Assembly (NCBI RefSeq): GCF_963506605.1 | Contig: NC_083292.1 | Location: 1,364,001-1,428,000 of the forward strand | Direction: 5' to 3' | From: Zootoca vivipara | Taxonomy: Eukaryota | DNA: 64,000 nt | Shown here: one piece after another, positions 26,909 to 61,312 of the stretch | How the letters are laid out: each line of letters opens with the position of its first letter | Position numbering within the stretch: position 1 is the first letter of the stretch | The notes under the pieces: model-generated | The model's input: only the letters and a program-made list of their open reading frames with translations | What the model was told of the DNA's origin: nothing | Databases searched by the model: none | Position numbers and translations under genes: made by a program

Positions 26909-29900
26909 TTAGAACTCATTGCTAAGATGTTGTCTCTCACACAGTTCTCCCTCTTGTTCCTTGGTTCTGCCAAAGTTGAGCTTGTGGAACTCTCTCTTAA
27001 TTTCCAGGAAGGTTTTGTTCTTTGTCTCAGGAATAACAAAGGAGATGAAAATGACAACCAAGCAGCATTCTAGCAAAAACACAATGAAGCAGTACTGCTT
27101 GAGACCTTTCTGGAAGAAGGAAAAAGAAAGAGCATGTCAAAGGGGGGGGGAGAGATGACACTTTCTGTGCCCCTCCAGGCACTGCTGGATGGCTCAGCCT
27201 TCTCCATGAATTTCTCTCTCAATGGCTACAAGTTACCTCCATCATCCGCTGCTGTAAATCACTAGTGGGGAGAGCGCCATTGTATTTGGGCCCTGCTTGC
27301 AGCCTTCCCCAAAGAGGTTGCATCTGGCTGGACACTGTGAGAACAGGATGCTGTGCTAGAGGGGACTCCTTTGGCCTGATCCAGCATGCCTCAAAAGGAG
27401 ACCCTGGACCATGAACAACACCCCAACCCCCACCTGGAGTGGCTTTATCTGCTCAAGCTGTTCATTTGAATTCTTTCATCCACTATCCCTGGCTAGAAAT
27501 CTCTCCTGCATAGTGAACTGGAATCATTGTGCATCTTAGAAATTCTAGGAATTTTAATTAGATGTATTTATGCATTTTTTCCCTTTTCTTGGGGAGGCAG
27601 GTTCTAACTAGAGTTCATTAAAGGCTTAGAAAACATGATCTAAATGCATTTCTGGGGTGAACAGGCTGTTTTACTGGCAGCTGTTTCTGCACATTCATGT
27701 ACTTCTCAGCTCCCTTTGCAGGGGGTGAGGGTTACTTCTAAAGGTATTAAGAGTTGGAAAAGAATTGGTGAAGATTTGTCCCTCGTGCATGAGGCACCTC
27801 CCTGATTCAAGGGCTGCTCATCATACAGAATTGCCTCCAACTGCACTAAGAGGTGAACCGTCTTTCTCGGGCTTTACTGAAAAGGGGTAGCCATGGGTGC
27901 TGCTGAGAGAGCCCAGCCAGGGTTTGGTGCTGTCTCATTAGGGGCCAGCTTCAGTTCATTTTGCATGGGTGTCAAGTAGTGGGGATGATGACGACAATAG
28001 AGAAGGGTGCTCTCTGGGGTTCCCTCTATTTTATATCAACATTTATGAGCCCCTTTTTTGAAGTGAAAGTGGACAAAAGCCCAGCTAATAAAATAATAAT
28101 AAAAGAACAAATGTCAAATGCAAAAACCAGGGCAATGGGCACAGCAGCGCCATCTCCTGATGAGTCCCCCTGAGTGGTGTCTCTTGCAGGAACAGCCAGG
28201 GGAGGTCGGGTGGCTACAAGCTGCCAGTTTACCTACCACAATGAAGGGGAAGAGCATCCCGATAGTGAAGAAGCTGAGCCAGCTCACCGAGCCTGCAATC
28301 ATGTAAGCAGCTGGGCGCGAAGACTGGGTGAATAATTCTGTGGTCAAAGTGTTCGTCACCCCACCTGCAAACCAATTTTCAAAAAAGACGGTGCTATGCT
28401 GGGGGAGTATTTCAAGAAACAGAAAATGAAACTCTTTCCCTTCCTAGATTAGGAAGCCATTTGCATGTCTTTGAGGGGGAGGCTAGCGGCTAGGTTTTGT
28501 TGGAATCTGGCTACAGAACCATAGGCTAAGAACAAATGAGCAGTTGTGGCAACTCCCTCTTCTTTTAAAGCATGGCAGCTATTGTCATCCTTGGGTCTAC
28601 GGAGGGAAGGCAAGTCAGTACAGAATAGTACCTAGTATCTGATGCCCAGAAAATGGAGAGAATGCACCTAATAACTCCACCTCTTGAGCTAGGATGTTAT
28701 GTTCCCATCCCCTTCATGCCTGCCCTGAGCTTCTGGGATAATTAGCATAGGCAAAGGAAGTCGTGTCTGCCTAATTCAATGGTGCTTCATCTTGATGAAC
28801 AGTTGATGGGAAATGCAAGTGGGAAAGGGTTGTTGTCCTCATGTCCTGCTTGTGGGCTTCCCGGAAGAGGCAGCCAGCTGGCCACCATGGGAACAGGAGG
28901 CTTTGTCCAGCAACCTGGTTCTTCTTGGGGACTTGGGATGCCTCCATGCATTTCCTGCACTTGCCTTCAGCAGGTGGGCTTTTGCAGCACCTTCAAGCAG
29001 CCTACTTAGCTTTTGCAGCATCCTGTTGGTGGCCATCGCTCTGCCTGTTGGTAAAACTGTGGGCTCCAAAAATTCCCAACTTAAACTCCAGCAACTGGTA
29101 GTTGAAGGCGCACGCAGTGTCTGCCCCAAATTTATCACTGGGAAGAGGTACCTGGTCCAAGACCAAAACTCAAGATGAAGGCAAATATGCAGGCCATGCT
29201 CAGGTAGGGCGCCCACGAGTACACCTGGGGAAGAGAGAGCACATGGGAAGGCTTGGCACTGGCTGCAGCCACCATGCCCCTCCCTCATGTAAGCACCCTG
29301 AAGGGGATCAGGGCCAAGCCATGGTGGGAATCCAATAGCAGAGGGGCCAAGTGCAGCACGCTGTCTCTCCTGGCTTCCCTCCTGCTGCGCGGAAGACTCC
29401 TGAGACCTGCTGGCCTTCAGCGACGCCTCTCATGGTGCCTTGCTCATCAAGAGTCAGCACCCATACACACCACATGAGCAGGCATCATGTTGAAAAGCTG
29501 CATTGCAGCTGGCCCACATGCTCCGAACAAGATTACCCAGCCTACCTGGTACGTCAGGGAAAAGGTCAGCACTATGCACCAAAAGGTCATCAGGGAGTAG
29601 CCTCCCAGGATCAGGACCCTTCTTCCCATAGACTCAATGAGCAAGCCCTGCGAAAAGACGAGGAAAGCATTCACTCAGCAGCAAGGAGGAGTCCCTTTCT
29701 TGCCTCAGAAATTCAGATGGGCGCAATTGGAACACTCATCACTTACGCAGGTGAGAGCAGTGAGGCACTCACAAGCCCCAGTGCCAAGGGTCACGTAAGG
29801 AATGTTTTCTCGGGGAATCCCAGCTTCCTCAAATACATAACTTGCATAGAAGTAAATCTGTGAGAAAATACCAAAAACAATGCATGGGAGGCAAATCACC

Positions 29901-32900
29901 AGGCAAAGCAGGCACAGCCCAGGCAATGTGGCCTGTGCAGAGTTAATTTGGGTACGTATCTTACCTGAAAAAGCGGCTAAGAAAAGGAAAAAAAGCTGCT
30001 TAATGTTGCCGCCTTCTAAAAACTGGCATGCATAACTTGCCCACTACGGGGGCCTGGAAGCTCTGCATTCTTCCCTGGGAGGGTCATCCTCCAATCTTCA
30101 CAGGAAATTGAGCTGGCTGTGAAAGGGCTGGTCAAGAGTGCCACCAGCCATGCCCTCACTGCTGAGGTCCAGTGCAAGGGAGAGCACATGGAGGGGGACA
30201 GTGTGTGTGTGTGCGCGCGCATGTTTTGTTTGAGAGTGGGGTAGGGACGGGCCTGGCTGACATTAGCTTTACTCTTCATAGACAACTGGACCGGGCAAAG
30301 TTCAGTTTAAACAGCAGATCAGCCAGCCAGCTTGGGTATGTAAAATGGACATGAAACTGGCAGATAAACAACTCCACTCTGGTTCTAACAGTTGCTTTGG
30401 AACAAAGGATGGGTTGGAGTTTCTCTCATAATGAGTGACATTCAGACACTTCCCTGTCACCCCAGTTCCTAAAAAGGCTTACATTTTACCCCCTTCCCAG
30501 TCCACCTTTGAGCCCAATGCACATTTCCCTGTTTGTGCTAACAATGGGAAGAAATGTCCTCTCACATGTGTGCCCTTTGTTTGGACACATCTTTTTTTTT
30601 TTTAATATAATTTTTATTAGATTTTAACAAGAAATACAAGAAAAAAGAAAAAGGCACAAAAAAGAAAAATACATTAAAAAAAACCGACCAAAAACAAAAA
30701 CAAAAAAAAAAGACAAAAACCGATTCAGACTTCCTCATTTCCCCTTCTTGAGTTCTTATTGTTAAAAATAGTTCTCGCATTTTCCCATTCTAACTTCACA
30801 TTCTTTTTTCTAAATTTCAACTTTTTCATCTTTTTCATTGCTATTATCCATTCTCCTTGTACTTTAACCTCTTTTCTCTTAACATCCTCTCTCCAAAATT
30901 ATTATTATCTAATCCCTAGTCTCTTTCCCTTACCCAAAAATATATAAGATTCACATCCTAATTTATTACCCATTTACTTCCACCCACACAACAAAGTTCC
31001 CACCCCCCCTTCCCTGGAATCGAAGTCTCCAGATGAATCAGCCAGGTTCCTCATACAATCCTTAATACATTCCGAGATCAGACCATATTATTTCAGACAA
31101 TACCAGATAATCCAGAACCCCTCAACCCACCCCTAACCTGTCCCATACCAACTTTTGCCGAACTCTTACCCCCCCCCCTTCTGTAATCCCATCACTTTGT
31201 ATCTTTGCACCTTTTCATCCTCTTTCTGCCCCCCAACTGTTTGTGTCCTCCCCTCTCTCACCGGGGCGCTGATTTTCCCAACCTTTTTTTTGGGGTGCTT
31301 TTTTGCTTTAACCCTCTCCTGTTTCACTTCTCTCACCAGTGAAACAGTGTTTTCTCCTACTTTCCCTCCCTGTTCCACCCCTCCCACCAGTAGAACAGTG
31401 TTCTTTTCAGGAAATAAATCCATTGGTTCAGCATATTGTCCTTCAGTATTATCTTTCTCCTCTTCTATGTTTTTTACATACGTCACTCCAGCACAGTCCT
31501 GGTCTTCCAATCTTTTTTCTTCTCCCTTCTCCTGATCTTCTATTTCTGTTGGATCCTGTGTTTTACAGTCAAAAACAAATGTCTCGACAGCCTCTTCTCT
31601 CAGAAAGTTTACATCAAGCTTGGAGATGCTCACTTGCTTAGTAAGATCCAAAATTGTTGCCAATATTAAGTCCCACTGTGTGACTTCCTGTCCACTCTCT
31701 GGAACCTTCTCTCCTATTCCTTTGTCTAAAACCTCCTCCATCTTTGTACAGACAGGCCGTGGAGTTGAAATTTTAGTCCAATATATATAAAAAGTGAACA
31801 AATAGGCAAAAAGCCAAAAATCCAGTCCCACTTGGTCAGAATCTCTCTCTTTACTCCTTCTTTTCCTCAGAGTCAATACTGAGCAGCCTCAAGGCAAAAC
31901 AAGTCCTCTTTCACTGTTTACAGCTCTCAGTCTCTCACATTCAGCCAGACACATTCCTTTGTATTGTGACGTTAATCAGCAGACTGACTGATCTTTCCTT
32001 TGACCCGACTCCAGGCTCGCAGGGGGCTTTTCTCATGCTGGATCTCAGTCTTTTGCAGAGATAAATACACCGCTTACTTTTTCCTTTACTCTGCCTCAGG
32101 AAAAAGCTCTTTTTACAGCATTTCTGGGTTTTCTAGCTTGCTGCGATCTTTAGTTACTCAATCGGGGGGGGGGGAGATGACTTCCCTTTTTAATCTCCGC
32201 CTCCCACTGCCAAATTCTTGTTTCAAATTGATTGGTTTCAACTTACTTCGTCCAGATCGTAACTTTTTCAGGAAGAATCCACCGCCTGCAGGTTGGAGGC
32301 TCAGAGCTTCGCTTCTTGGAGGTAACGATGGTATGCCTAAAATGGCTCCCGCGACTGCCACTCGGCTGGCTCTCAGGGGCTCTTGTGGGCTTCCTGGGCA
32401 GCTGAGGAGTCGCTTCTGGAGCTCCGCCAGGCAAAATTTGCCCCCTGGACGCTCAACCAGGGGTATTTACGGGGATCCGCGTGCCCCCGCGGATTTCCCC
32501 CCCCTCCGCGATGCCAGAAACCTCGCAGCGCGAGGTTTCTGCGCCTCCATTTTCCAGCGCGGCAGACCGGAAGTTGTTTGGACACATCTACACTGAGCCA
32601 GTTCCGCACCACCTTCAGTCTCTCAGCTCCCAGCCAAGGGATCCTGGGAACTGTAGTTCTATCAGAGAACAGAGCACCTAACCGTACTCAGCATTTCCTC
32701 AAGGTGACAGCTCCCAGAATCTCTTGGAGAAGTCCCAGCAGCTAAGCCGTTTCCAAGTTGGTTGAGGTTTGTTTGGAGTGTAAATGCATGTCCTTGCATG
32801 GCAGAGGGGAAACTAGGCAGCAGGCAAAAGAGTGATGCCTAATGAAGAGGGGAATGGCTCAGTCCTGGTACTCACCGCATTGATCCCACTGAGCTGCTGG

Positions 32901-35900
32901 CCCATTGGCAAGAGGATGATGGTGATGAGCTGCCATCGGATGCTGCGGTCAGTGAAGAGTTGCCAGGGTTTCTTGGCTGCCTCACCACCAAGTGCAAAGC
33001 GTTCCTTCTGAATGTCCTCCATTTCTGCCTGGTAGTTCAAAGGGCCATGGAACCGTTTCATTGCTGGGAAGGATGGAGGAGAGCTTTTAGGGCCCAAGTG
33101 GGCCTTTGAGTGCAGGAGATATTCGTGAGGCCACCAAGAGCTGTTGCAGCTCAAGAGAGAGACGGCAAGGGGCCTTGCAGTTTGGACCATAGAAGCCACC
33201 TTCCCAACCACCCAATCGGAGAGGAATCGGGCTGGCTACTTCACAGGTGCATCTGGACTGGGCACAATCTAGCTTGCCCAGGGCCCCACACTGAGTCCTT
33301 GGACACACAACTCTTTGGAGCAGAAGGAAACAGCCAGCAGTGGCTTGGGTGTGAAACACAGAGCAGTCAAATACAACATTCCTAGGGTGGGCATAAAAAG
33401 GGGGTGTCTGGACCAGCCAGTTGGAACTTCCTGTTTTCTCCTGGGCTGAGACAAACTTCCTCTACATGTGACCAGAGGTGGGCGTGACCTCACCTGTGCA
33501 GGTAACAAAATAACACCGGGGAGGCAGCCATCTCTCTCTCTGACTCTATTCCTCAAAGAAGCAACATCTCCTTAGCCTGAGATGACAAGAGATGACAAAG
33601 GAACTACAGTATCTCCTTATGGGATAGATTCCACGTGTATATATTTTATAACCTAGGTCTGCCTTCTGGGATCCTTCTGTGAACAGAATGTGTGTAAACT
33701 ATTTTATATAATTTTATACAAGACTGTGTCGTGTCTATTCTTTTAAGAGGGAATAAAGGGGAATTACCAGGAAACTTATTTTAGAGGGTTATGCAAGCCT
33801 GGCAAAGACGTTATCCGCTGTGCAATTTTTTAAAAAAATGGGAATGTTACTCTGCTAAATTATAGAACTTGTTAAACAATATATCCTCTCCTGCCTCCCT
33901 GAACATTCCCACATGGTTAAGAGCCTCTCCGGGGTGGTAAGTGATCTTTTGAGGAGCAGGGAGTCTGAGGCTGAGAGCAAGGGGGGGTGGGGGAAGCAAG
34001 GAGCAGTGCTCCTTCTGCAGCTGCCCTTGCTATGGATGCTGAAGGGCAGACTTCACCTTTGATGCTTTTCATCTCATCCCCTTGGTCAATGAAGAGAAAC
34101 CGGGGACTTTCTGGAAACCAGGGTAGGGTCAAGAGTTGGATGAAGGCTGGGAAGCAGCTGCTTGAGAGCAGTAAATGCCAGTAGGCCTCTCCGCCAAGTA
34201 ACTCCCTGCAGGAAGAACAGACAATGCTGAGACAAGGGGCTGCCAGCTCCATTCTGATCCTGGGACAACAAGCCAGGCCAAAGCTGAGCAGCCCTTTCTG
34301 GGTGATGGGGCCCCAGCACTCACCTTAAGCCAATCACCTGTCCTGTTAGAATCCCCCCTGTCAGGAAGATGGAGCTGCCCATGACCATCGCGCCTCGCAG
34401 ATGCTTAGGGGCAGCCTCGCCTATGTAGAGAGGCTGCACACAGAGTCCAATGCCTGGAAATGGAAGAGGAAATCAGTGGCCCCCCTTCTTCATTGCAGGA
34501 TCCACACACAGGGGACCCTCGGGGCCTGCAGGTGGCCTTTCTACTCATCCCTCCTTTCATTCTAGGTTGCTAGTGGTGTCACAGGGTGTTCAGCCTCAAC
34601 AACACCACCAGAAACATAAAGCAAAGGTTCACAAAATCCTTTGCAGTAGGATGTGCCCACACAGAGTAAGACCACTAGCTGATCATTGAGGAAGTCACAG
34701 GTGCACAAACATATCCCACATGTGAAGTGAAGACACGAGTCAGAGGGTTGATGCATGTGAGCTGTGCATGTAGCAAGCTGAAGCAAGCTTGGCAGAGCCT
34801 CCTTTTATTAGCACAGATGCACACGTGGAGGAACAGTCTGACCTTTAGGGCTTTTACATCATGAGCTGACACATATGTTTCCTCTGGTATCTGCAAGACT
34901 TGCTCCACCATGCCATGTTCCTACCAAGTGGGAAGACTACTGAGAAAGCCAAAGGTGAGAGTGAGGGCACGGCATGCAGACAGCTACTGCGGCTTTCCTG
35001 GGGGCGGAGGGGTGCCTCACACCCGAAGGTCAGGCTGTGGCCTGCCGGGGGGAAGTGTGCCTCACCTCCAGTGATCAAACCGCAGCCTACCTGCAGGCGG
35101 AGTTGTGCCTCACACCGGCCGTCGAATCCCTACAAGCTACAACATGTGCCCTTAAAGCCCCTGAAATCCCACCAGGTGAATTTTCCCAGGTGCAAAGTTG
35201 AGTTACCTGTGTTTATACCAATCAGAAATCTCCCAACAATCAGCAATTCATACAATCCGGCTGGAAAACTAACTCCCATGAGGATGGCGGCCAGGATGGC
35301 AATAAAGTTGTTCATTAAAAGAGTTCCTTTCCTGCAAAGGAGGAGGGTAACAGGATTGCACTCTTAAGGGACAGATAATTATTTGTCACAGACCCTGACA
35401 GGCTCCTGGACAAAGTTGGCACAGCGTTCAAGGTCCTCCAAGAGAAACAGGCAAATTTAAACATCTTACCTTTCCCCTTTTTTAAGACAACGTCTTATAA
35501 CTTTTTTTCCTCAAAAAAAACACAGTGTGGCTTACTTTCGGTGGGGTGTCTTATTTCTTTTATTACCGGTACGGTTTTTACAGCTCAGGTCAGAGCACTG
35601 CTGGGCTCTATTGAGTGCTTGGTGCTGCAGCAGCCACCGGTTCCAGGTGGCGGGGCGGCAGGTGTCTTTGGCCGGGTCAGGCAGAGGCCGCTGGCTCAGG
35701 CGCTCCGCCCAGCACTGCAGGGCGCTCCAAGCTCCTTGGCCGGGCCAGGCAAGGAAGAAGCAGTGAGCCCAGCGGTGGCGGCAAGCACGGAAGCGGCAGG
35801 GACAGCGGGGGACGAGAAGGCGGAGCGCGGGGATGCAGCCAGCAAGGCGGGAGCGCGATCAGCTGTTAAGCGGAGCTCTTGGAGCGCCACTTCACAGCTG

Positions 35901-38900
35901 ATCACGCTCCTGCAGTGCTGGCCGCATCGAGTGACTCTGTGAGTGGAGGTGCCTGTAGGGGTTGGTTTCTGCGGCACGGAAGCATGGCTTATTTCCGGGG
36001 TATGTCTTATATTTCTCAAATGCTTAAAAATCCTGCCATGGCTTACTTTATGACTACGTATTAAAAAGGGGAAACAGGGTAGATAAGGTGGGTGGAATCC
36101 AAGGGCCTCCTTCCCACTAAAGCACACAATGGAAAGTCACCCCTCTGGAGACTCCCCACCCCGCCCCCAACACTCCTATTTTTGCTGATAGGGTTGTGCT
36201 TGGCTCTGAGTGCTGGAAGATGAGCTGAAAGGCCCACTAAGTCAATGTCCTGGTTATTCTTGGGCAAGTCTCACTCTTTCAGCCCAGCCTCACAGGGTTG
36301 TTAAAGGTCCAGTCACAGACGACTCTGGGGTTGTAACGCTCATATTGCTTTATTGGCCGAGGGAGCTGGCGTACAGCTTCCGGGACATGTGGCCAACATG
36401 ACTAAGCTGCTTCTGACGAAACCAGAGCAGCACACGGAAACACCATTTACCTTCCCGCCGGAGTGGTACCTATTTATCTACTTGCACTTTGACATGCTTC
36501 CAAACTGCTAGGTTGGCAGGAGCAGAGACCAAGCAACGGCAGCTCATCCTGTTGCGGGGATTCGAACTGCCAACCTTCTGATCGGCAAGCCCTAGGCTCT
36601 GTGGTTTAGACCACAGTGCCACCCATGTCTCTTCACAGGGTTGTTATGCAAGTGAAATTAAGTTGGGGGTACGTATGTGGCCTCACTTCTTTCGGATTAA
36701 GCAATGCAAAAAAAGAAAGAAAGCAATACAACCATTTTTCTTCTTATGATAAGAAGCATCCTGCAGAAGAGTGAATCTTAAGCCAGAAGTGTGTGCTCTT
36801 CCATCTTGCTCACCTGCCCAGGTGGATGGCCAGGCTGCCTCCAAGGTGAGCCCCAAAGAGCCCTCCCAGGGAGAAAATGGAAGCAATGGTGGACCAGAGG
36901 AGTGTCAGCATGCTGGAACTGAGCTCTGCCTGGTAACGCCTCTGCCAGGTGTCGTTGAGGAACTTGTGGATGTGCTGGAAGGACAAAGTGGAGAGAGCAT
37001 TCGCCGCTGCTGCCGCCACCACTGCTGCAACAGCCATCTTCTCTTCTCCAGGTGCAGCAAGCCCTTCTGCCTCTTTGCCTTGAGGAGCAAAGGCAGGCCA
37101 AAGCCGAGGAGCCCCCTCTGCATCAACCGCATGGTGGCTGGTTGACCTGATCCCAGGCAGGAATTGATTGTGCCAGGAAAGTGGGGCCTCATGGGTGAGC
37201 AGCCTCCCCTTTGCACAGCCATCTCCTTGCAGCCTGACATGGAGTTATCCAGGGCTTGGCCCATCAAACCCAGAGCCTCCCACCCTGACCGGAAGCATCT
37301 CTTTCCTTGCCCAGCTACACAACAGCCTTTTTGTAGCAAATGCCACAGGAGAGAGAGAGCCAGCCGGGGCCTGGTGAATGCAGAGTTTACTTGAGGGGTT
37401 GCCCTCTCGGCAATTCAGTCTATGGACCTTGAACTCTTACAAGGACCATAGGATGTTCACCTCACATTTGTCAGGAACTGGTACCTGGGCTTTGAGGCTC
37501 CTTGCGTCTTCATATGAGGCAAACACCCAGCTAAAAAATTGCTCCAGCAAACCTGGCAAGAGTAGTTGTGTTCACTTGTTTTTAAAATTTGCTTATTTTA
37601 TTTGTATATTGTTGATAATTGCTTGTATTGTTTGCATGTATACTGCTTAGGCTTTTTAAAAGTAGTTTATAAATTCTTCTAAATAAATTGGCAGGTGCTC
37701 AGGGGTTTTGTGGTTCTTGCCCCCCTCCCACCCTCTAACTCAGGGGTCAGCAAACTTTTTCAGCAGGGGGCCGGTCCACTGTCCCTCAGACCTTGTGGAG
37801 GACCGGACTATATTTTGAAAAAATATATGAACGAATTCCTATGCCCCACAAATAACCCAGAGATGCATTTTAAATAAAAGGACACATTCTACTCATGTAA
37901 AAACATGCTGATTCGTGGACCATCCGTGGGCCGGATTTAGAAGGCGATTGGGCCGCATCCAGCCCCCGGGCCTTAGTTTGGGGACCTCTGCTCTAGCTTA
38001 TGGACTTGGGGCAGGCTGTGGGGCATCTTGTTAGTTTGAAAATGAGATTTACTGTGTGAGGTAGAAACCTTGCAGGGGGTGTACCCTAATAGCAAGAAGC
38101 AGGAAGTAGCAGCAGGAGTCAGGGCATGGACATGCTTACATTTGTTGGTGAACAACTGATCAATGACTTGGCAGAGCTGCTAGGACTTGCTAGGGCAATC
38201 ACACCCAGTGCTCCATTCACTGAGCCACTGCCAGTCTTCAAGGCTGTGGGCACCTTGCCTCTGTCCCTTCTCTATGCAGAGAGGTGGCTCTGTTTCCATG
38301 GCAACAGCTGCCTAACCCTCTTATTGAAGGACAATAAGTCATACAGTGGTACCTCAGGTTACAAACGCTTCAGGTTACAGACTCCACTAACACAGAAATA
38401 GTACCTCAGGTTAAGAACTTTGCTTCAGGATGAGAACAGAAATCGTGCTCCGGCGGCACGGCGGCAACAGGAGGCCCCATTAGCTAAAGTGGTGCTTCAG
38501 GTTAAGAACAGTTTCAAGTTAAGAACGGACCTCCGGAATGAATTAAATTCTTAACCAGAGGTACCACTGTATTCCCATTGCCAGGCCACCATGAAAGCAG
38601 AGAGGCTGGTGAGAGGGAAAGTGGGGCTTGGCTTTCCCATATTCCCAGGGTCAGCAGGGGGCCCCTGGTGCCAATTCCTGCCAATGTCCCCCAGCTATGC
38701 TCCCCACCGCTACACACATGCACTGGTTGTCCTCTAAGAGATGCTGCATTGTCCCACTTAAGAGTCTTGGAGGGGGGAATCCATCTTTCTGAATCCTTGG
38801 TCATGGTGAGACCAAGGGCAGGCCACATTTTCTTCAACAGACCAAAAATTACCGGCATCCTCTGAACTCTCGCCAACAGTGCACCCCTAGGCTCTCAATC

Positions 38901-41900
38901 CATGAGACATCAGCATGTTTGTCTCACTCTTTTTTCCAGTCTTGTGCTTTTATCTCTCCATGGTTACTTTGTTTTAATTATTTTTAAAATGCATGAAATG
39001 TTTTGGTAAATCAAGATTGCACTCTTTAATCAGAAAGGGAATCAGCTGATGAGGGGTGAGGGCAGCCGCCTGCGTCCCTCCAGACTTGCTCAGCTTTACA
39101 ATCTATAGCTTTACTGTCGATTTATGACAGCACAATGGAGCCATCACCAGCTCTTGGCCAGTCTCCCCATCCTCAGGCTCAGGGGCAATTGGGGTGAGGC
39201 AGGACTAGAAGGAGAATATTCTTTTGGTTAGCCTTTGTGGGCCTCCTGCCCAATGATGGCAGCCACAGCAGCCCTGAGGGAAGGGAGAGGGCAAAGCCTC
39301 CCCGTATGGGGAGGGCAAGGAGCCCCGTTCCTTGACACAAATCTGGGGTGGAGTGTTCACTTAGTTTGGACTGCATGAGTCATGGGGGAATGATCCCCAT
39401 GAAGCAGATATTTGAACGATGGTGCGTACTGCCGACAACCTGACAGCTTTTTATTTATCCTCATGGCTTGATAAGAAATGTTTCTGGGGAAGAAGTTTAG
39501 GAAAGCAACAGGCAACTTTGCTCCAAGCATTTGATAGGTCAGATAATAGTGTAGACCAGGCATCCCCAAACTGCGGCCCTCCAGATGTTTTGGACTACAA
39601 TTCCCATCTTCCCCGACCACTGGTCCTGTTAGCTAGGGATCATGGGAGTTGTAGGCCAAAACATCTGGAGGGACGCAGTTTGGGGATGTCTGGTGTAGAG
39701 TAACCCTCCCATCTCCAGCAACAGAAAAGAGATAAAAACAGCATCTCACCTGAGTGGGTGCATTGATGATGGAAACGTTGTACCCATATTGAAAGGTGCC
39801 TCCGATTCCTGCCGCACAAACAGCCAAAAGGAGCGTCCAAGTCGGGAGCTAGAGAAAGAAGCCAGAGACCCTCGTGGTCTGGAGAGTCATGCTACTCGGA
39901 ACAGACTGGAGGCTTCTGTGTAGAAACACTAAGCCTTCCCCCCACAACCTCTGATCCCAAGAGCCTTCCTTCAGAGAATGGGATCTCTCACTTTTGCAGA
40001 TTATAACTGATATCTAAGCAGCCTTTGCCAAGCTCTGCAGATGTTATGGATTAGCACAGTGTTTCTCAACCACTGTTCCGCGGCACACTAGTGTGCCGCG
40101 AGATGTTGCCTGGTGTGCCGTGGGAGAATTACTTTATATATAGTCAATATAGGCACAGAGTTAATTTTTTTAACATTTTCTAATGGTGGTGTGCCTTGTG
40201 ATTTTTTTCATGAAACAAGTGTGCCTTTGCCCAAAAAAGGTTGAGAAACACTGGATTAGCAGTCCTATCAGCCCCAGCCAACCAACATGGCTGTATGATG
40301 CTGAGGCTGATGACAGTGGCAGTCCAAAACATCTGGAGGGCACCAGGTTGGGGAAGGCTTCCCTCAGGCCCAGGGGGCAGGCATTTTATGCCATCCTCCT
40401 CTCCAGCAGAGAGGCTGCAGCAGAGTCATAGCTGCCAAGTTTTCCCTTTTCTCGCAAGGAAGCCTATTCAGCATAAGGGAAAATCCCTTTTAAAAAGGGA
40501 TAACTTGGCAGCTATGAGCAGAGTTGGGCAGGTTGGACTGAGGCTGGACTACCTGTAACACCCACAGTTCTGAACTAAGGGAGAAGCAGATTTGTACTCC
40601 TGCTGGAGTCAGCATAATAAATGTGTACAGATGGTTTATAAACTGAATCAAGCAGTTAATTAAGAAGCATAGCAATGAATTAACAACAAACACAAGTGAC
40701 CACCATTGATTGCATGGCACAGTTTCTGCTCATTGTGCTGCCTCTGCTTCCAGGTGCCCCATCAGCTGTGTTCTTCTCTTCCTCTTGCATTTTAAAGCAG
40801 AGGCAGGATAGCTCAGTCTGTAGGGTATGAGACTCTTAATCTCAGGTTGTGGGTTTCAGTCCCCCATTGGCATGGGCATAGCTAATGGGGGGCAGGGGCA
40901 GCTAACCCCCCCCCCCCGATCAAGTAAAACAATGGAAATAACTAACTGACCAATCATGATGGTTCTGTCCCCCTCTAACAAAAATCCTGGCTACTCCCAT
41001 GCCCATTGGACAAAACATTCCTGCATTGCAGGGGGTTGGGCTAGATGATCCTCATGGTCCCTTCCAACTCTACAATTATATTATTCTAGGACTAAGCTTC
41101 TCCATTCCCCATCTGCCTTGGCTCTTTCCGAGCACTACAAAGGTGCCAGCCTTCCTTTTCCTTAATTCCCAGGGTCAGCACCAACAAACTTCAAATGTTT
41201 GCAGGTTGCTAGAATCCTGGCAAAGCACACAGGACCTGACTAGCTACGGTACTACCTGATCCAACAAGACAATCATTGTGACCTTTAGCAAGAGTTGCAG
41301 AATCAGGATTTCTGAGCACAGCTCACTCTTGCCCATCAGAACTCTCCTCTTTGTGAGTTTGCACTCTTGCTTTGTGAATTTTAAAAAGTGGCTGACAACA
41401 ATTTCTAGCAAAAAAAGGTAAATGAGGAGAGCAGGCAAGTTTGTGGGTGGCTCATGAGGTTTGAGCCTGCTGTAGAACAGTGTTTGCTGAGTGGCCCAAA
41501 TGTTCAAAGCAAGCTTTGCCAGGTGAAACCTCATTTGACCCACAGAACTGCTGCCCTGTTGATGGAGGAATCCTGCTCCACCAGGCAGCAGAGGCAGGAG
41601 CTGTTTGGCATGTGCCCCCACTTGGAAACCTGCCTGTTGGCCTCCCGCCTTGGCCCTCAAGTAGGAATAGCCTCTTTGCCAGGTAATCCCTTGGCATGTG
41701 ACCCAGGCTGATCAAGTCTGGCTTGAGCACAAAGGAATGTGCACACACACAAAAGTACCACCCCAACACCAAAGTGACTCACTCTGGACTTTCTGAATCG
41801 TGAGGAAATAAAAGCCCCAAACTGGAAAACAAGCCCTTTCCCACTGCTCACTATTGTTCTCTGGGGCTGCTGTGTTTCTCGACTGGAACTTTGCCTTTAT

Positions 41901-43802
41901 CCTTGGGGAGAGGGCAAGGTGGAGAGGAATTACTTCCTTGGGACAGAACCGCCAGCACTTCATTGTTCCCCTTTCATCCTGGACTGGGCAGTGGGTGGGC
42001 CTTGGCTTCACCTCAGACAAGGAGATGACTAAGCACTCGAGCAGGGCAGCCACACAAGAGAACCATCCCCATCACTGCTGAGAGCCTCATGACTTCCTGC
42101 TTGTGATGCTGATGTGAATGGATTATCTGAGGAACTAATCACTTGACAGGATGAGGCGCTCTCATTCATTATGCTCTTAGCTTTTTGCATTCCTGCTTTA
42201 TTTCCTCCACTCCTGAAATGCCACACAATTAAACTGACCCACCTTGAGATAAGCAAATGGGGGCTGGGGGCTGGGAGAGGTATCTGTCCAGGGACATGAT
42301 GGATGCTCCATTGCAGTTGGTTAGACTCTTCACCCAAAACAGAGTTCAGTGCGGTCATTTGGGCCATCAGTCTCTTGCCAACAGCAGCAAGTATCAGAGC
42401 TCAACACATGCCTTCACCAAAGCCAAAATGACGATGAAGCAGTAGCTGCAGCCATACACCCCCTGGAAGCCATTCCAGACTCTGACCCCACCCCCATTGA
42501 TTACTTACATAATTAAACTCTGCTTTTATTTCTCTATTATGCACCCTGAGTGCTGCTATCCTGAAAGAGAGGGGACAATTCTCTACACCAGTCACCAATA
42601 TACAAATATTTGCTCAATCACTGAGAGTGGTGTCAAAATCATTGAAGTGCAGTGGGTGGAAAATTGAAATTTAACAAAACAAATCCATCAACTGCCCTGT
42701 ACAAAAGATGCTGTTGACTTTATTTATTTATTTATTTATCTATCAAATTTCTTGCCAGCCTTCATCAACAGGTAGCTGCACAGTTTGCAACAATATTATA
42801 ATCACTGGAAATCATTTACAATCAGAAGAATAGGGTGGGTCCTAAAATATATATTTCACAGGTATCAAAGGCCAGGATGAAGTGGTGCCTCTTCAGCATA
42901 GGATGGGAGTTGAATGACAAAGGTCCCAGGTGCCCCTTCTCTGTGGGGAAGGGGGGATGTCACAGCTTAGGAGCTGACACACCAATGCCACCAGAGCTAT
43001 CAAGAGCACCCCCTCTATCAAACTGAACACCCAAGATATTTGGGGGGTTTTAAGAAGGTAGCTTAATGTTACCTGCAAGCCTCTCTAGAAGAATTTGTAT
43101 CCTAAAAGGCTGGGCAGATAGATAGGCAGGCAGATACTTCTCAAATTCATGCTGCAATTTCCATTATCAGTTGCCTCATGGAAGTATTCACACACCCCAC
43201 CATCTGTTTGTTAGAAGGAATCTCCTGTAAGATCAGGGTATGCAAATCTCACCCTCACTTCAGTTGCCTCTATAACGCACACACATCCCCTCCTGCATTA
43301 TGAGACTCAATACTTCTGCCTTTCCCCTGAAACCCAAGCCCACAGCCTCCTTGTCGCCTGTGACTGTGCAAGCTTGCATACCTTGCTAGGCTGTCCAGCA
43401 CCTTTAAGCAGCGGCTGGTGCTCCATTCTCCACACCAGGCGGGTGGCCTTCTCACCAAGGTGGCTAAGCTACAGCAGAAAGAGGCTGAGAGGTGCCACCG
43501 TTGGGGTGGCAAAGTGCTGTTGCAGCAGACCCCAGAGCCTTCATGCCAAGATACTCCAGACTCAGTTATCCATGGAGTTTTATGGGCTGGGATTCATCAC
43601 AGCCTGCCCTGAAAAGCATTTAAGGGGTCACCCCACAAAGAACTTTTTCACCGACTGTGAACAGTCAATTCGTTTTGGTTGCTCAGGGAAACATGCACAT
43701 TAGTGACCAGTTTGCTATGGGCCCCCATTTGTCCGTGAAGAGAGAGAGAGAGAAGCAGACAGAGAGCTGGGAGGAGACATTTACCTTGTGATTTTCTCTC
43801 AT
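26909..43802 (-). CDS. SLC2A11B: Class II facilitative GLUT-family transporter, SLC2A11-like (probably SLC2A11B), 494 aa; exons 43785-43802, 39750-39848, 36814-36974, 35207-35331, 34324-34453, 34057-34205, 32876-33063, 29747-29857, 29546-29647, 29152-29224, 28237-28364, 26909-27109
   Basis: GT-AG exons totalling 1485 nt with TAA. Sugar-porter motifs [57 protein letters not shown]. Family is secure; the B-paralog name and the 18-nt exon 1 (MRENHK|GTAAAT) are inferred. AATAAA (minus) at 26681-26686. Confidence 0.88.
30593..32573 (-). mobile_element. ~2-kb RT-less L1-like retroposon (copy A) in SLC2A11B intron 7
   Basis: 16-bp TSD TTGTTTGGACACATCT at 30577-30592 and 32574-32589; CpG-rich 5' end starting CTTCCGGTCT; ORF 31166-31876; AATAAA (30613-30618) plus poly(A) tail; no RT or endonuclease motifs. 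Confidence 0.85.
35480..36060. mobile_element. Degraded pogo/Tc1-like non-autonomous element with a GC/CpG-rich interior
   Basis: Subterminal TAAGAC..GTCTTAT and GGCTTATTTCCGGGGTATGTCTTAT motifs resemble the MITE at 54553; termini eroded. Confidence 0.5.
36304..36632 (-). mobile_element. Sauria SINE
   Basis: Colinear with 6658-7016; TSD TCACAGGGTTGTTA at 36290-36303 and 36633-36646. Confidence 0.88.
37741..37990. mobile_element. hAT-Charlie non-autonomous element (OC1/OposCharlie-like), 250 bp
   Basis: Termini CAGGGGTCAGCAAACT / AGTTTGGGGACCTCTG; TSD CTCTAACT / CTCTAGCT; internal CACTGTCCCTCAGACC...CCGGACTATA...AATTCCTATGC. Confidence 0.8.
38344..38569. mobile_element. Tigger-like MITE
   Basis: TIRs CAGTGGTACCTCAGGTTA / TAACCAGAGGTACCACTG, TA TSD. 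Confidence 0.85.
39557..39692. mobile_element. Hairpin hAT MITE, 136 bp
   Basis: TIRs CAGGCATCCCCAAACTGCG / CGCAGTTTGGGGATGTCTG; TSD GTGTAGAC / GTGTAGAG. Confidence 0.88.
40057..40253. mobile_element. hAT MITE nested in an older hairpin MITE (about 40018-40360)
   Basis: Perfect TIRs CAGTGTTTCTCAACC / GGTTGAGAAACACTG and perfect TSD GATTAGCA. Confidence 0.9.
40801..41095 (+). mobile_element. tRNA-derived SINE with CR1-like 3' tail, interrupted by a hAT MITE
   Basis: tRNA-like head GATAGCTCAGTC...GACTCTTAATCTCAGG; tail GGGGGTTGGGCTAGATGATCCTC...CCCTTCCAACTCTAC. Confidence 0.7.
40871..41001. mobile_element. hAT-like MITE inside the SINE
   Basis: Termini CATGGGCATAGC / GCTACTCCCATG; 8-bp TSD CCCATTGG at 40863-40870 and 41002-41009. 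Confidence 0.8.
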
Positions 43803-44571
43803 TCCTCCCTTGGACCTTGAGCTTCTGACGGGACAGTTGGAGTGTGGAGCAATGCGCAGAGCTGGTGCAGCATCAGGGGGCTCTTCTCTCACATCTCAGC
43901 TCTTCCACCTAGAGGCCCATTGAAGCGCCAATGAGAAAGACTGGGCCCCTCACCTGACTGGCTTTCACATGTTGCTGGCTCAAAAAATTAAGCTGGCTTT
44001 GAACTGCAAACTCTGCCTGGGGGGGGGGGGAGGGCTCCCAGCTGAGTGCTGCTTACACAATGCGAGATAAGAGACCTGGAAAGAAATGGGTCTGTCTGAA
44101 TCCCTTGGTGTTTCCAGGCTTCACATGTGCCTGGGAAGAGCAGGTCACAGTCCAGAGCTTTTCAAACTAGCCCCCTTTGGGCAGAATTCTGTTGGAGTTA
44201 CAGCAAAAGCCTCCAGAATATGGAGCTGGCGACACCAAAGTGGACGCAGAAAAAGAACCAAAGGAAAGGATGGCTACAGCCAGCCAGAGACCCAGGTGGA
44301 CAGGCTGGCAAAGGAATGCGGTCACTGGGAGAAGAGGCAGACAAACCCAAGGAGCAGCTTCCCAGGATGCGCAGGGGGTCTAAGGCCAGCAAGAAGAAAA
44401 GAGGATGTCAGTGGAGATAGTCCAGGGAGGGAGGTGAGAGGAGAAACCTGGAGTTTCTGTGGTCCCTCATCTGAGAAACCTCCCCTGCAGATCCCTGCAT
44501 CTCAAGCCCCTGCCAAAGGAACAGGGCAAGACAAAGTCGTTCCTTTCTGACCAGCTAGCAACCCTTTAGGC

Positions 44572-44707
44572 CAGACATAGGCAAACTCAGCCCTCCAGAT
44601 GTTTTGGGACTTCAGCTCCCATCATCCCTGACCACTGGTCCTGTTAGCTAGGGGTGATGGAAGTTGTAGTCCCAAAACATCTGGAGGGCTGTGTTTGCCT
44701 ATGCCTG
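44572..44707. mobile_element. Hairpin hAT MITE, 136 bp, about 770 bp upstream of the SLC2A11B ATG
   Basis: TIRs CAGACATAGGCAAAC / GTTTGCCTATGCCTG; TSD CTTTAGGC / TTTTAGGC. Confidence 0.88.
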
Positions 44708-45700
44708 TTTTAGGCACTCGGGGTAGGGTGTTGTGTGCAGAAAAGCACCCCACCTCTTGGAGTGTAAAGGTATATAAGGCCAAAATAGCCCCTAAATTCC
44801 TCTATGAGTCTATGGCATCCCATTATGGATTGATGCAGTTAGCCAGTTGTTGGAACACATCCAATCCAAATTCTTGCACTAAATCCTGCCAAATTGTGTG
44901 CCACATGCAGCCATGTGTCTGGAAACTGGACAAGAGCTGCTGGAAACCAAAGCGTAGCTCACCACTATAAAGTTCTGACTCCTCCTACATTTCATGTCCA
45001 ATTCCTCCTCTTTAACTTCCCACATGCTGGCAGAATCCCACCACTCGAAACAGCTAGCTTGCATTGAGAGCAAAATCAGAACCTGTGTCCTATCACTCGA
45101 GTCACTGCTTATGTTCCCACAATTGGAAGCATTCCAGACAATCAAGCGCAGAATCCTAGATATTTTATTCCAAACCCTTAGCAGCATAGCCAAGAAAACC
45201 TGTTTCCCATTGGGATTGGGAATTCCACCCTCATTTGGCCAGGGCATTCCATATTTACATCACTTTATGATCCCCACCTAGGCAGAGTTCTTTCTCTTGC
45301 AACATTTAACGTCTTACCATTTGCAGTTTTGCAAGGCAGATTACAAATAAAATAAAAAATACTGCCCTTGTGACACAAAACAAGTTGAATCCATCACACG
45401 CATTTTCTTTAATTGCCCATTTTATGCAAAAATATATGATAAGTAGAAGAAGGGGATTTATCACTCTGACTCTTCCAGCGTGTCTGATCTGCTGAACAAT
45501 TGCGTTGCCCCAGCTTCTTCGGAGGAGAAAAAACTTAAACACTGTTGCAGAGCTCCCCAAAATAGACCAGAGGCAATTGTACTTCATCCAGCAGAGCTTT
45601 ACTGCTACTGAAAGCAAATGAGCAGAATGGTCACAAATCCAGTGCATTCAGTATTGGCACAGTCCATAAAAATCCAGTTGCAGCACTTACAATAAAACTT

Positions 45701-47632
45701 TTTTAAAAAATGTATTAATTTTCAAACAATTCAAAATACAAAATTTGGCAAAAACAAAACATAAAACATAAAGGGAGGGAAGGAAAAGAAAAACATATCA
45801 ATTCTTACATTGAATTAACATTGTGGACTTCCTCGATTCCCCCCACACTGGGTCCAATTTTAAATCTAAATTAAGCAATTTTCCTTTATCATCTTAAATT
45901 ATTTTATCACATTTTTTCCATTCTCTCACAACCAATTTTAATCCAAAACAGAACATCAACTATCCTCAACCTATAAATTCATTAATTAATCCAAATCTAA
46001 AGTTATTTTTCCATCCATCTCTGTTTCTTCCCTTAGCCTCAAAGTTTCTACCCCAAACTTTTAAAAACACATTCAAATATTATTTATTCTATCATAATAA
46101 CCTTTAACCACTTATATCTAATTCTACCCCCCTTCCCCTGGACTCTGGGTCTCCCAGATGCATCAGCCAGCTCCATAAGCCATCAATCAGTCAGAAAATA
46201 ACCCATTTTTACTCCTCATCCCACTCCCACTCTTTCGTTGCCTATCCACCACTCTCCCATCTTTACCTGCTGCCCCCCCCAATTTCTAACTGTAGCACAA
46301 TACCATCCAGCTATGTTTCCACTTTTCAGCCCTATCTCAATTTTTATTCCCTTTAAATTCTAGCCCCGGTATGGATCCTGCCCTCCCTCTCTCACTAGAA
46401 GGATATTATTCCATACTGTTTTTTCTTTGGAGACTCATTGAGTCACACATGTCTTGTTCCCCTCCTCCCACTGGGGAAACAATGGTCCATGTGTCTTCCT
46501 CATCTTTTTAAAATTCAACTATATTGTCCAGGACTGATGGTTGTTCATCTTGCTTCTCCTCAGTCTCCGCTGGGACTGGTCCCTCCTCACTCTCAATGCA
46601 GCTCTTACTTAATATGCCCATCTGTCTATTATTCTGACACAGTTCATCTCTAAATTCCAAAAGCAATTCCAAAAGTTCCTTCAGAAAGTCAGCAAAGTCA
46701 GGCGATGATGTTTTGTCTACTGTCACCCTGCTCATCTCCAATTTCATGGGAACTGCAGAGATTACAGTCAGGAAATTGCGCAGTTTGTATTTCCAAACTT
46801 CAAAAACATACTTTATGTCCGATCTGGTTACAGATTCTCAATTTTTGATTCTTGATCATTCTTAAAAATCTTATGTCCATTCATGAAAAGAGCATTGTCC
46901 AACTTATATATATACAGCCTTATATTTTGACAGTTCTCAGCTTTAAAGAAGTAAATAAACTCCTTCTTATTGTGATGTCATAATGGCAGCTTGCTGATCC
47001 CTCCAGGGACCCCGCTCCAGCTTCTAGGGGGATTTTCTCCAGTCCAAAATGAATATTTTTTTACAGGGATTTTACTGAATTGAACCCTTCTCCCCTTTAC
47101 CCTGCCTTAGGGGGAAGGTTTTAGGTCCAATTTTTAAATAATCAAATCAATCTTTCTGGCTTCAGGCAAATTAACTGTCTCAGAGTCCTCTCAATGGGGG
47201 AGATCGACTTCCTCTTTTTAACCTCCTCCCGTGGCCAATTTTCCCCGAATAAAGTAATTTTTAGAATATCTTTCCTTTACTCACGGTATCCAATGTCTTA
47301 AAATCCTTCTTTTTTTTTTGTTTTTTTTTGAAAAATCCACCGCTCCTCCGCTGCTGGCTCTATGCTTTGCTCTGTGAGGGTAGTGGTATACTCGAAAATG
47401 GATCCCATGACTCTCACTCCGCTCGCTCTCGGAGCTCTTAAAAAAAGCTTACTGGGGGGCAGAGGAGTCACTTTGGGGCACAGCCGAGCTCTCATGCCCC
47501 CAGAAAGCTAAATCTGGGGTTCTTTTGGGGGTCCGCGTTGCTCTTGGGGCTCCCCCCTCTCCCTCAGAGCGCCAGGAACCTCGGAGCTTGAGGATTCCTC
47601 GCCGATCAGCACTGGTGGTAGACCGGAAGTCC
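45701..47632 (-). mobile_element. ~1.9-kb RT-less L1-like retroposon (copy B, divergent relative of copy A)
   Basis: 13-bp TSD TACAATAAAACTT at 45688-45700 and 47633-47645; 5' start GGACTTCCGGTCT; ORF remnant 46508-46747; A-rich 3' end; several colinear blocks shared with 30593-32573. Confidence 0.82.
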
Positions 47633-48206
47633 TACAATAAAACTTGCAATACTTATACTGTAATAAGACTAAACCTTAACACTACAGCATACAGAATACG
47701 TCACACAGGAACAATGAGATAGAAAGTGAGACCCAGGCTCCTCCTGGTCTGACTTTAATAGTCAGCACATCCTTGACAAAAAGATAACAGAACTAGTTTA
47801 AACCAGCTGTACTCAGCTTCCCAGAATAAATAACCCAAAAAGGAACCTTCTGCCTGTTTCTTTCACATAAAAAGAAAACTTTCCAGAACACTCTTGAATT
47901 AAGTAGAACAGGAAAAATCTATACACATCAGATCAACACTTTCTTTAGTAAGAAATGCTGCCTGACAAATTGTAGGAATGACGTTGTAGAGAATGTGGCA
48001 AGATTTTTGAGTGACACCGTGAAATTACGTCACCATAGATCCTAAGAGCCATTTTCATACCTCACAGTGTCTGGACAGCTTTATCCTAAAGTATCTCCTA
48101 CTATGTTCTGTGAACAGTGTTGTGTTCTGATCCATGTATACGATGCCAATATAGGAGACTGATTGATGGTAGTGGAATTTGTTGCACCAGGGCAATGGGG
48201 CACTTT

Positions 48207-59715: not shown

Positions 59716-61312
59716 TCAGCGTGCGGCGCTGCCGCCGCAGGGAGAGCTCTCATTGGGCAGCTAGCGACGGGGGCGGGGCGCCTCGGTTGCGTCAGCCGGA
59801 GTAACAGCACGCGCTGCGCATGATCCCTCTTCTCCCCCTCCCCCCTCCCCCAAGCGCCACGTTGGCCGCCCCTCCCGCTCCGGACTGACAGGCAAGACAG
59901 CGCTCCGCCCTCCCCTCGCTGCGCAGCCGCAGAAGCAACGCGGAGGGTAGACGTCTCCAGCGGTGCCGCCTCTGTTGCTGGTCTCTGCCCCGAGGCGCCT
60001 GAGCAACGGCAAAGGCCGTGCAAGAGCGTAAGGAGAACCTGGCTGCAAGTGGATGAGGCCGCAGCGGGCCCACCTCGCCCAGCACCCAGATGGGAAGCAG
60101 GAGCCCGGCAGAAGAGCCTCATTCCCAGCCACGGGTTTTCGGAGACTTCGCTGCCTCTGGCCGTGGAGGCAGACCGGAGCCGTCAGGAGCCTTGTCGGGG
60201 GGGGGGGGGATTCCATAGTCTGACCCTGTGCTTCATGGAGGAGAACAACTTTATCTGTCCCAAATCCTCCATCTTTGTTGGGTGTCCACAGGTTCCAGTG
60301 TTATGGAACATTTTATACTGTCTCACCTTTGCTCTAAACTAAAAATTTCCAGGTGCTGCAACCGTTCTTCACACAGGAGTTGTTCCATCCCTTCTCCTGG
60401 GAGAAGCCATTCTTGAGGCAGCAGGTGAGCCTGGGCCCCTGGACCCAGGTGCCTTGTGGAAATTGGTAGCACTTAGGAGGTGGGCCCTCGCTGCTGCTGC
60501 TGCTGCTGCCCTCCCTCCTGAAATTCAGGTGGGGCTGGGGCCAGACCTTTGCAAAGGACACTTTTCCTATGCTTTGTGGAGAGAAAAGCACCCTTGCCTC
60601 TCTTCCTGGCCCTCCTTGCATACAGTTCTGCAAACTGCAGAGGGGGCACTATGCCCTCCTTGTCCTTGGGGTCTGTGTGATGCTAGGCCGCCTTCAGCAT
60701 GCCTTTCTGGCCCTGCACACAACAGCTACTCTGCCACGAACCCCTCTAACGGGCAGTGATGGCAACAGGGACTGATTGCAGTAGGCAGAGCTCAGTGGGG
60801 TGGCTGGATTAAGCCAGAAACAGATGGAAGACATCAAAGGAGAAAAGCAAGTGAGGCTTTTCCACCAGCTCCCTTGAGGGGCTAGCTCTCCTTCAACTGG
60901 TTCTCCAAGATCTTCGGCTCTCCTTCAGCTGTTGCCTAGTGACAACTGTGTATCATGACTTGGATCAGGGGCTCTTGGAGGGTATGGCACCCCACACTGC
61001 TGTGGCAGGAGAGGATGGCAAGCAATCAGTGAACTGAACAGCCTTATACATATTGCAACATGGTAGAAAGGATTTATTACCATACTTTGCATCGTTGTCT
61101 ACATAAAATTTTGACTGGGTTAGACACTCCTTTGGAAAGTGCAGCTGTTCAGGATGAGGCAATGACATGCATTTTCAGTGATCGGGCCTTGAAAATGTCA
61201 CTGGACTCTTTTTGGATATACAACCAGAAACAGTATTCATGACCATTGACTTCGTCTACAGTTCTCTCCACAACATAGCATGAACGGGGATTTTCAACTC
61301 TGATAAATATCA

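Follow-up and report, generated by a model that had tools for sequence, protein, structure and literature searches.

An apparently L1-derived family of 2-kb retroposons in Zootoca vivipara keeps a short reading frame without RNA-binding domains

The stretch of DNA studied here (the window) comprises 64,000 nt of Zootoca vivipara NC_083292.1, positions 1,364,001-1,428,000, and the coordinates given below are window positions. It contains two retroposons of about 2 kb, element 1 and element 2, both on the minus strand and flanked by exact target-site duplications (TSDs) of 16 bp and 13 bp, respectively, at the coordinates claimed in the initial annotation (Table 1). They belong to a multi-copy family that appears to descend from long interspersed element (LINE) L1 by internal deletion, lacks the second L1 open reading frame (ORF2) and keeps a single short ORF open. 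Element 1 sits between exons of an SLC2A-like sugar-transporter gene on the same strand: a Pfam-type domain scan of the window gave a Sugar_tr match on the exon at 32816-33235, and the exon frame at 29705-30043 is presumably part of the same gene. FHA and CCDC117 domain matches elsewhere in the window, together with further frames that we take to be HSCB and XBP1, suggest that this is the CHEK2-HSCB-CCDC117-XBP1 region.

As had been annotated, the first 250 nt of the elements are CpG-rich (21 CpG in element 1, 12 in element 2) and their 3' ends A-rich. The proposal that they are divergent copies of one another also holds, since their global alignment scores 260 against -242 +/- 25 (best -198) for 20 block shuffles; the best blastn block has an E-value of 1e-14, and identity in a multiple alignment is ~53%. 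The supposedly shared ETS-like start is found as CTTCCGG in element 1, where most other copies have 1-5 extra bases (typically GA or GGA) ahead of it, but element 2 begins GGACTTCCGGTCT. Positions 1-611 of element 1 match L1 5' untranslated regions (5'UTRs; nhmmer E 2e-45), and an L1 3' profile matches positions 1747-1978 of element 1 (E 4e-14) and 1455-1930 of element 2 (E 8e-16). The ORF of element 1 had been placed at 31166-31876; its end is right, but its start is the ATG at 31741 (A at -3, G at +4), and a slip in a G-run leaves the window copy with 191 aa rather than 205 aa. In element 2 a 79-aa frame does lie at 46508-46747, but only as the stump of a longer frame of originally ~180-190 aa, ending at 46216. 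In agreement with the annotation, neither window copy has an endonuclease or reverse transcriptase (RT) frame, nor do the elements have an RNA recognition motif (RRM) or the C-terminal domain (CTD) of the L1 ORF1 protein (ORF1p).

Table 1. Coordinates of the features of elements 1 and 2 in the window
Feature	Position	Strand	Remark
TSD of element 1, 3' side	30577-30592		16 bp, identical to 32574-32589
Element 1, full-length young lineage-1 copy, 1981 bp	30593-32573	-	nearest copies 98.5% identical
5'UTR of element 1, 832 nt	31742-32573	-	ETS-like CTTCCGG start; homology to lizard L1 5'UTRs over first ~610 nt
ORF of element 1, 191 aa in window copy	31166-31741	-	family frame of 205 aa would end at 31122
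Sole predicted helix of element 1 ORF, residues 22-43	31613-31678	-	AlphaFold model of copy L003
Non-coding ORF2 3' remnant, L1-type 3'UTR and A tail of element 1	30593-31050	-	profile matches
G-rich GAGGAAGTC motif, 3'UTR of element 1	30728-30736	-	sequence
AATAAA of element 1	30613-30618	-	sequence
TSD of element 1, 5' side	32574-32589		16 bp, identical to 30577-30592
TSD of element 2, 3' side	45688-45700		13 bp, identical to 47633-47645
Element 2, full-length older dead lineage-2 copy, 1932 bp	45701-47632	-	nearest copy 91% identical
5'UTR of element 2, 885 nt, L1-derived	46748-47632	-	nhmmer E 2e-79, element positions 1-667
Broken ORF of element 2	46216-46747	-	79 aa to stop at 46508, then frameshift and second stop
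ORF2 3' remnant (~last 40 codons, non-coding) and 3'UTR of element 2	45701-46178	-	L1 3' profile; alignment to L172
GAGGAAGTC motif, 3'UTR of element 2	45826-45834	-	sequence
TSD of element 2, 5' side	47633-47645		13 bp, identical to 45688-45700

A genome search with element 1 gave 1241 first-look candidates, of which the best 40 were scored and 30 copies fetched. End-to-end matches of 94-100% identity were found at 37 of the 40 scored places, window copy included, and 26 of the 30 fetched copies, of ~1.94-1.98 kb, carry an A tail and TSDs of 15-23 bp (automatic TSD calls for L018, L089 and L121 were doubtful and not relied on). The 205-aa ORF is intact in 26/30 copies; of the others, the window copy aside, two encode 175 aa and the third contains a stop. 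These young copies form two subfamilies, ~99% identical within each and 96% between them. As the search ranks long matches first, it was repeated with a 3'-only query, whose best 40 matches comprised at least 26 known full-length copies, 6 copies 5'-truncated within the ORF and 8 of undefined 5' extent. For element 2 there were 1148 candidates (best 40 scored, 30 fetched); 19 of the 40 span at least positions 12-1847 at 74-88% identity, itself excepted, and 14 of the 30 have a TSD of at least 13 bp. With the ORF of element 1 as query, at least 150 places were scored, with identity down to 33%; in none of the 40 divergent ORF loci fetched did the ORF run on into ORF2 as in L1, and where these had TSDs the unit measured mostly 1.95-2.26 kb, being longer where nested inserts were present. 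Insertion sites lean towards T/RARA (T at -1 in 18/26, A at +1 in 20/26, A at +3 in 21/26), as expected for the L1 endonuclease. The family of ~2 kb is thus real, amplified as a unit and recently active, and element 2, a dead copy, belongs to an older sister lineage. The recurrent RT-less 2-kb family with at least two lineages that had been predicted from the two window copies is borne out.

Some family copies are themselves associated with L1 fragments. In L044 and L124, 3' fragments of autonomous L1s, comprising the ORF2 C-terminus, 3'UTR and A tail, are inserted sense-wise within the ORF region, with ~190 nt of the element missing at the site in L044, and at L089:150-740 an L1 3' fragment ends A-rich and a family copy starts immediately behind it. 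The window itself holds a decayed L1 ORF2 fragment (21430-22343, minus strand) and open frames at 61284-62349 that we take to resemble ORF2 of CR1-type LINEs; the one scanned had no Pfam match.

The family was compared with 80 fetched L1 loci. Intact young L1s, with an ORF2 of 1244-1250 aa and some pairs more than 99% identical, are present in the genome, but the best matches to the element profiles are the 5'UTRs of a group of older L1s with broken ORFs (L194, L184, L190, L185, L182; E down to 6e-83). An L1 sharing both ends with the elements, which had been proposed as a check for autonomous L1s, was found in L194 of this group with broken ORFs (E 6e-83 at the 5' end, 1e-13 at the 3' end). 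The lineage-1 profile also matched the ORF2 end and UTR of L200 (E 1e-11). Conversely, an L1 5' profile matched 23/23 elements beginning at the very first bases (E between 1e-91 and 1e-45; the matches listed included no decoy), covering about the first 500-700 nt and up to ~870 nt in two, and an L1 3' profile matched 23/23 at E 5e-8 or better (best decoy 1e-3). In 8 of 11 lineage-2 copies the 3' match starts ~40 codons before the ORF2 stop, and the block CTCCAGATGAATCAGCCAG, previously noted as shared by both elements, is a remnant of ORF2 that is now non-coding. Older lineage-1 copies (L098, L102, L103, L113) have a duplicated 3'UTR block, with two profile matches each. Folding two sequences of the 3' GAGGAAGTC region together, a weak test, predicted no common RNA structure. 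In a tree of 45 5' ends, lineage 1 (support 100/99) and lineage 2 (86/94) grouped with eight L1s of the older group (96/98), and one long-branch L1 row fell among the elements; a single origin of the lineages is compatible with this tree (approximately unbiased test, p-AU 0.48), not demonstrated by it.

From these alignments, the family is best read as having arisen by internal deletion from a lizard L1 lineage that is now decayed. That it originated in this way and is mobilised in trans by L1 is very probable, and trans-mobilisation by the L1 RT and endonuclease would follow from the TSD length, the target-site bias, the L1 3' end and the presence of intact L1s. The family seems to have survived longer than the L1 lineage that gave rise to it, in which case it would use more distant helpers; the extinction of the parent rests on a sample of 40 of 150 ORF1 matches, in which a close intact relative may be missed. 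The L1s of this genome fit the lizard clade-1 L1 of PMC5381506 in their ends, length and 5' motif.

Further observations concern the L1s themselves. At least three lineages with intact ORF2 occur side by side in the genome (L066-L085, L156-L215), and most of the L1 3'UTRs read share a G-rich GGAAGTC-like motif ~100-200 nt ahead of the A tail. L076 is a 7SK-L1 chimera, in which a complete 7SK RNA copy (L076:1856-2190, in G000:C2:29327400-29337300; Rfam E 4e-71, model 1-331) precedes the 5' end of an L1 whose ORF1 and ORF2 are both intact, a single 17-bp TSD enclosing the two. L209 (G000:C1:77821500-77829200) combines an L1 5'UTR with an ORF1, but the next ~4.7 kb downstream contain no ORF2 match; it may be either a genuine ORF1-only element or a copy that has been truncated. 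At L215:705-2020 a single ORF1 is preceded by two L1-type 5'UTR matches arranged in tandem.

The ATG of the family ORF lies at 830-890 nt of the element, and ORF1 of related L1s starts at 901 (L159) and ~940 (L194). A profile of lineage-2 N-termini (44 sequences against 74 targets, each with 11 decoys) matched the first ORF1p helix of L184 (independent E-value, iE, 1.6e-4; 17.4 bits) and that of L194 (10.4 bits; best decoy 6.4 bits), and an unconstrained DNA alignment to L194 gave the same helix register. This match was seen only after older L1 families had been added; a profile comparison (hhalign) of the element ORF alignment A1 with ORF1p of the young L1 family A gave none. The ORFs of both lineages are linked through a repeat region (iE down to 2e-7), in which PVGGVEQG-like units are gained and lost in frame among copies, and through a common GVG-stop end. 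The rest of either ORF had no match in six frames of 60 L1 loci, and alignment A1 had none in large protein collections. It should be noted that two other negatives are uninformative: no element ORF passed the Pfam cut-off, as intact lizard ORF1p likewise has no L1 ORF1 match, and a genome search with PF02994 matched nowhere, controls included. In the AlphaFold model of L003 everything beyond the helix is of low confidence (mean predicted local distance difference test score, pLDDT, 49), and residues 44-112 contain 22 Asp or Glu. The predicted complex of the helix with two L200 ORF1p coiled-coil chains scored 0.38, and one control 0.25, without alignments, and is weighed neither for nor against docking.

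We conclude that the ORF joins ~40 aa left over from the first ORF1p helix to a novel tail that is acidic and disordered, with RRM and CTD gone, and that the helix of element 1 corresponds by position to that first helix of ORF1p. The protein had been annotated as resembling the N-terminus of ORF1p, which stands for ~40 residues, matched in lineage 2 only, but not for the rest. Likewise, the amphipathic helix followed by an acidic tract agrees with the one helix and acidic tail predicted for the family ORF; in the broken frame of element 2, the N-terminal helix matches the first ORF1p helix of L184 and L194.

To what extent the frame is under selection was addressed with indels and with pairs of real copies. 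Among 23 lineage-2 copies from a DNA search, shared indels (in three or more copies) were multiples of three in 5/6 cases within the ORF against 4/37 in the UTRs (Fisher p 7e-4), whereas singletons did not differ (9/32 against 26/99). In lineage 1 (23 copies, 17 of them from a protein search; shared meaning in two or more copies) the counts were 14/15 in the ORF and 9/59 in the UTRs, and singletons also differed (8/13 against 13/72), which points to some ascertainment. The other two frames of the ORF region have 10-14 stops per copy. Copies 0.56 substitutions/site apart retain the same ATG and GVG-stop, and neutral simulations over that distance stayed stop-free in only ~1-2/1000 runs. The frame is therefore kept open between subfamilies. 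At the amino-acid level, the ratio of nonsynonymous to synonymous rates (omega) was taken as the net between-group value over pairs, which are not independent. For lineage 1, 44 of 56 intact frames were used (those dropped were one carrying an insert and 11 young ones that hardly differed); omega was 0.22-0.28 in the helix, codons 18-42 (upper 90% bootstrap bounds of 0.43-0.54 from 60 resamples), with agreeing sliding-window values, and 1.2-1.6 in the acidic part. The seven lineage-2 frames gave 0.54-0.69 for the helix and 0.72-0.87 for the remainder. Second codon positions of the helix vary least (shared variants by codon position 16/9/21 and 13/9/16). Constraint on the amino acids is weak and mostly limited to the helix.

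Three RNA runs of one study, of which ~6% each was read, were mapped to 29700-33400 and gave 70, 30 and 242 reads, the majority on element 1 and the others on a different repeat at the right edge; none fell on 29700-30567. The reads carry variants of other family copies, and in one run seven continue past the element 5' end into a different flank. The main X23 signal is antisense if the libraries are stranded, as hinted by only one or two host-exon read pairs. These reads show family sequence in RNA, not promoter activity; an RNA polymerase II (Pol II) promoter of the elements' own is inferred from 5'UTR homology only. In contigs from a DNA run, depth was in the thousands over element 1 and 54-58 on its flanks, which is not a copy number.

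The reading that we prefer, with a probability of roughly one half, is that the family borrows the ORF2 protein (ORF2p) of intact L1s, its short protein docking through the retained helix on the ORF1p particle of the helper. Internal deletion of a lizard L1 would have left a 2-kb non-autonomous retroposon with L1 5' and 3' parts, transcribed from the inherited internal Pol II promoter in the L1-derived 5'UTR; the ORF would be translated into the short protein of helix and acidic tail, the helix would dock on helper ORF1p and tie the element RNA to L1 particles, and ORF2p of intact L1s would perform target-primed reverse transcription in trans at T/RARA-like sites. Whether the helix has this tying role, the acidic tail being a loosely constrained disordered extension, is by itself evenly balanced. 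Passages of PMC5786205 suggest that the ORF1 proteins of HeT-A, HAL1 and Ag-Sponge multimerize with proteins of their autonomous partners, and truncated human ORF1p is reported in part of PMC5605252 to heterodimerise with the full-length protein. It is possible, if doubtful, that the acidic disordered tail took the place of nearly all of ORF1p, that the one helix was kept as a docking peptide with which to hijack the particles of unrelated L1 families, and that the family, as two sister lineages with many subfamilies, thereby survived the extinction of its parent.

Several results weigh against docking through the helix. In the experiments reported in PMC5605252, retrotransposition was suppressed, not aided, by truncated ORF1p that had at least 6 heptads, and no heterodimers formed with the coiled coil alone; the family helix retains only ~three heptads. 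Neither an ORF1p nor the lineage-2 profile is matched significantly by the N-terminus and helix of lineage 1. Omega of the whole lineage-1 ORF (0.66-0.82) is no lower than in off-frame controls (0.62-0.78), so that the constraint looked for on the ORF was found in the helix but not overall; moreover, sliding off-frame windows drop to 0.39-0.43, level with helix windows, the interval for the lineage-2 helix extends to 1.03 at a transition/transversion ratio (kappa) of 4, and the choice of lineage-1 copies by protein search and intact frame biases both tests. A stop at codon 80 is common to L031, L032 and L035 of the element 2 subfamily, two others being without it, so one source copy with a 79-aa frame may have spread. 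Finally, there is no pile of RNA read starts at the element 5' end, and the reads resemble read-through of a few other copies.

The alternatives differ mainly in what they make of the open frame. Translation itself could be selected, the open frame keeping the Pol II transcript stable and on ribosomes near nascent ORF2p, while the protein sequence barely matters. The frame is indeed strongly kept while omega is high in the acidic part and that of the whole ORF equals the controls, the repeat units vary in frame, and the model is disordered save for one helix; we nevertheless consider this unlikely, given that helix omega is lower in both lineages, in the very segment descended from ORF1p, and that second codon positions are least variable there. 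It is quite improbable that the ORF is a vestige whose openness stems from a few lucky source copies and from the way copies were found. Most lineage-2 copies are broken (7 distinct frames of at least 140 aa among 60 overlapping loci), the codon-80 stop is shared, recurring in L041 of another subfamily at the same T/A run, and the lineage-1 set was ascertained by protein search, but the indel bias is also present in copies from the DNA search, in shared indels only, and the rarity of stop-free neutral runs speaks against a vestige. More improbable still is a poison subunit, which would join helper ORF1p trimers and weaken L1 cis preference or activity, freeing ORF2p for the parasite or benefiting the host: truncated human ORF1p suppresses L1 in trans (PMC5605252, in part) and the acidic tail would repel RNA, yet many young intact L1s coexist with the family and few heptads are left. 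There is practically no chance that the two window copies are one-off internal deletions of full-length L1s, the outcome that the initial annotation had named as fatal to its proposal. Both ends are L1-derived, as this would require, but it is refuted by the 37 near-identical end-to-end places and the TSDs that 26 of 30 checked copies have of their own, as well as by a middle that matches no sampled L1 and by the 40 divergent loci, where the ORF never runs on into ORF2.

Known kinds of retroposon fit the family only in part. It is not a short interspersed element (SINE) with a Pol III head from tRNA, 7SL, 5S or snRNA, the head being L1 5'UTR, and an Rfam scan of L003 and L054 found no match and thus no sign of such a head. 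Nor is it an autonomous L1, as no ORF2 with endonuclease and RT was found in the window copies or following on from the ORF in the 40 divergent loci. In comparison with SpIREs (spliced L1 retrocopies), its deletion junctions are too diverged from any sampled L1 to be placed. It shares with lizard clade-1 L1, described in parts of PMC5381506 and here taken as the parent group, the 5' terminus GACTTCCGG, a 5'UTR of 0.8-1.5 kb and an AT-rich 3'UTR, but that L1 is autonomous and ~6.4 kb long; the words "nonautonomous" and "HAL1" are absent from PMC5381506. Full-text literature searches yielded no description of such a lizard family, although a catalogue entry (Repbase, Dfam) may exist.

The closest parallel is mammalian HAL1, as portrayed in PMC5753468, PMC5322556 and PMC2241872; PMC4408412 and PMC5203782 contain nothing on HAL1. 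Both are L1-derived multi-copy elements with an L1 5' end, one ORF at the ORF1 position, a poly(A) tail and TSDs (26/30 young copies here), amplified as a unit (37/40 and 19/40 scored matches near end-to-end), and dependence on L1 RT and endonuclease is inferred for the lizard family too; ORF2 is lost save for a non-coding remnant of ~40 codons, and 23/23 elements have L1 homology at both ends. However, HAL1 encodes ORF1p (coiled coil, RRM, CTD), and the rat RNHAL1 is 98% identical to an active L1 over its 5' 2600 bases, whereas the lizard family has no RRM or CTD, ~40 ORF1-derived residues (the first helix, in lineage 2) ahead of a novel remainder, and decayed nearest L1 relatives among those found. 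RNA binding by its own ORF1p has been proposed in the same sources as the advantage of HAL1; this explanation cannot apply here because the RNA-binding domains are gone, though the frame is kept. HeT-A and Ag-Sponge likewise combine LINE 5' and 3' parts around one frame thought to multimerize with helper proteins, but belong to the Jockey and CR1 clades and encode a protein corresponding to ORF1p rather than a fragment (PMC5786205, in part). RIME, NARTc, Bov-A and the Vingi-1_EE derivatives resemble the family in an internal deletion that keeps both ends and in likely Pol II transcription; according to PMC5786205, reports of such ORF-absent bipartite LINEs are confined to the RTE, Ingi, Vingi and R2 clades, while the lizard family is L1-derived, 2 kb long and open in frame. 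It consists, save for the novel middle, of parent 5' and 3' parts only, but it does have a coding frame, of 205 aa in 26/30 copies and with frame-preserving shared indels. The family works like HAL1 without its whole ORF1p, and its frame also keeps it apart from the ORF-less bipartite LINEs. As non-autonomous LINE derivatives are described in parts of PMC5786205 as either ORF1p-keeping or ORF-less, the ORF-less kind not from L1, it stands in between, and it offers a case in which a retroposon has acquired a new protein tail. The genome harbours intact young members of both this family and L1, and so provides a natural experiment on the way in which the cis preference of L1 is overcome by a long Pol II RNA, whether by translation alone or by a protein anchor.

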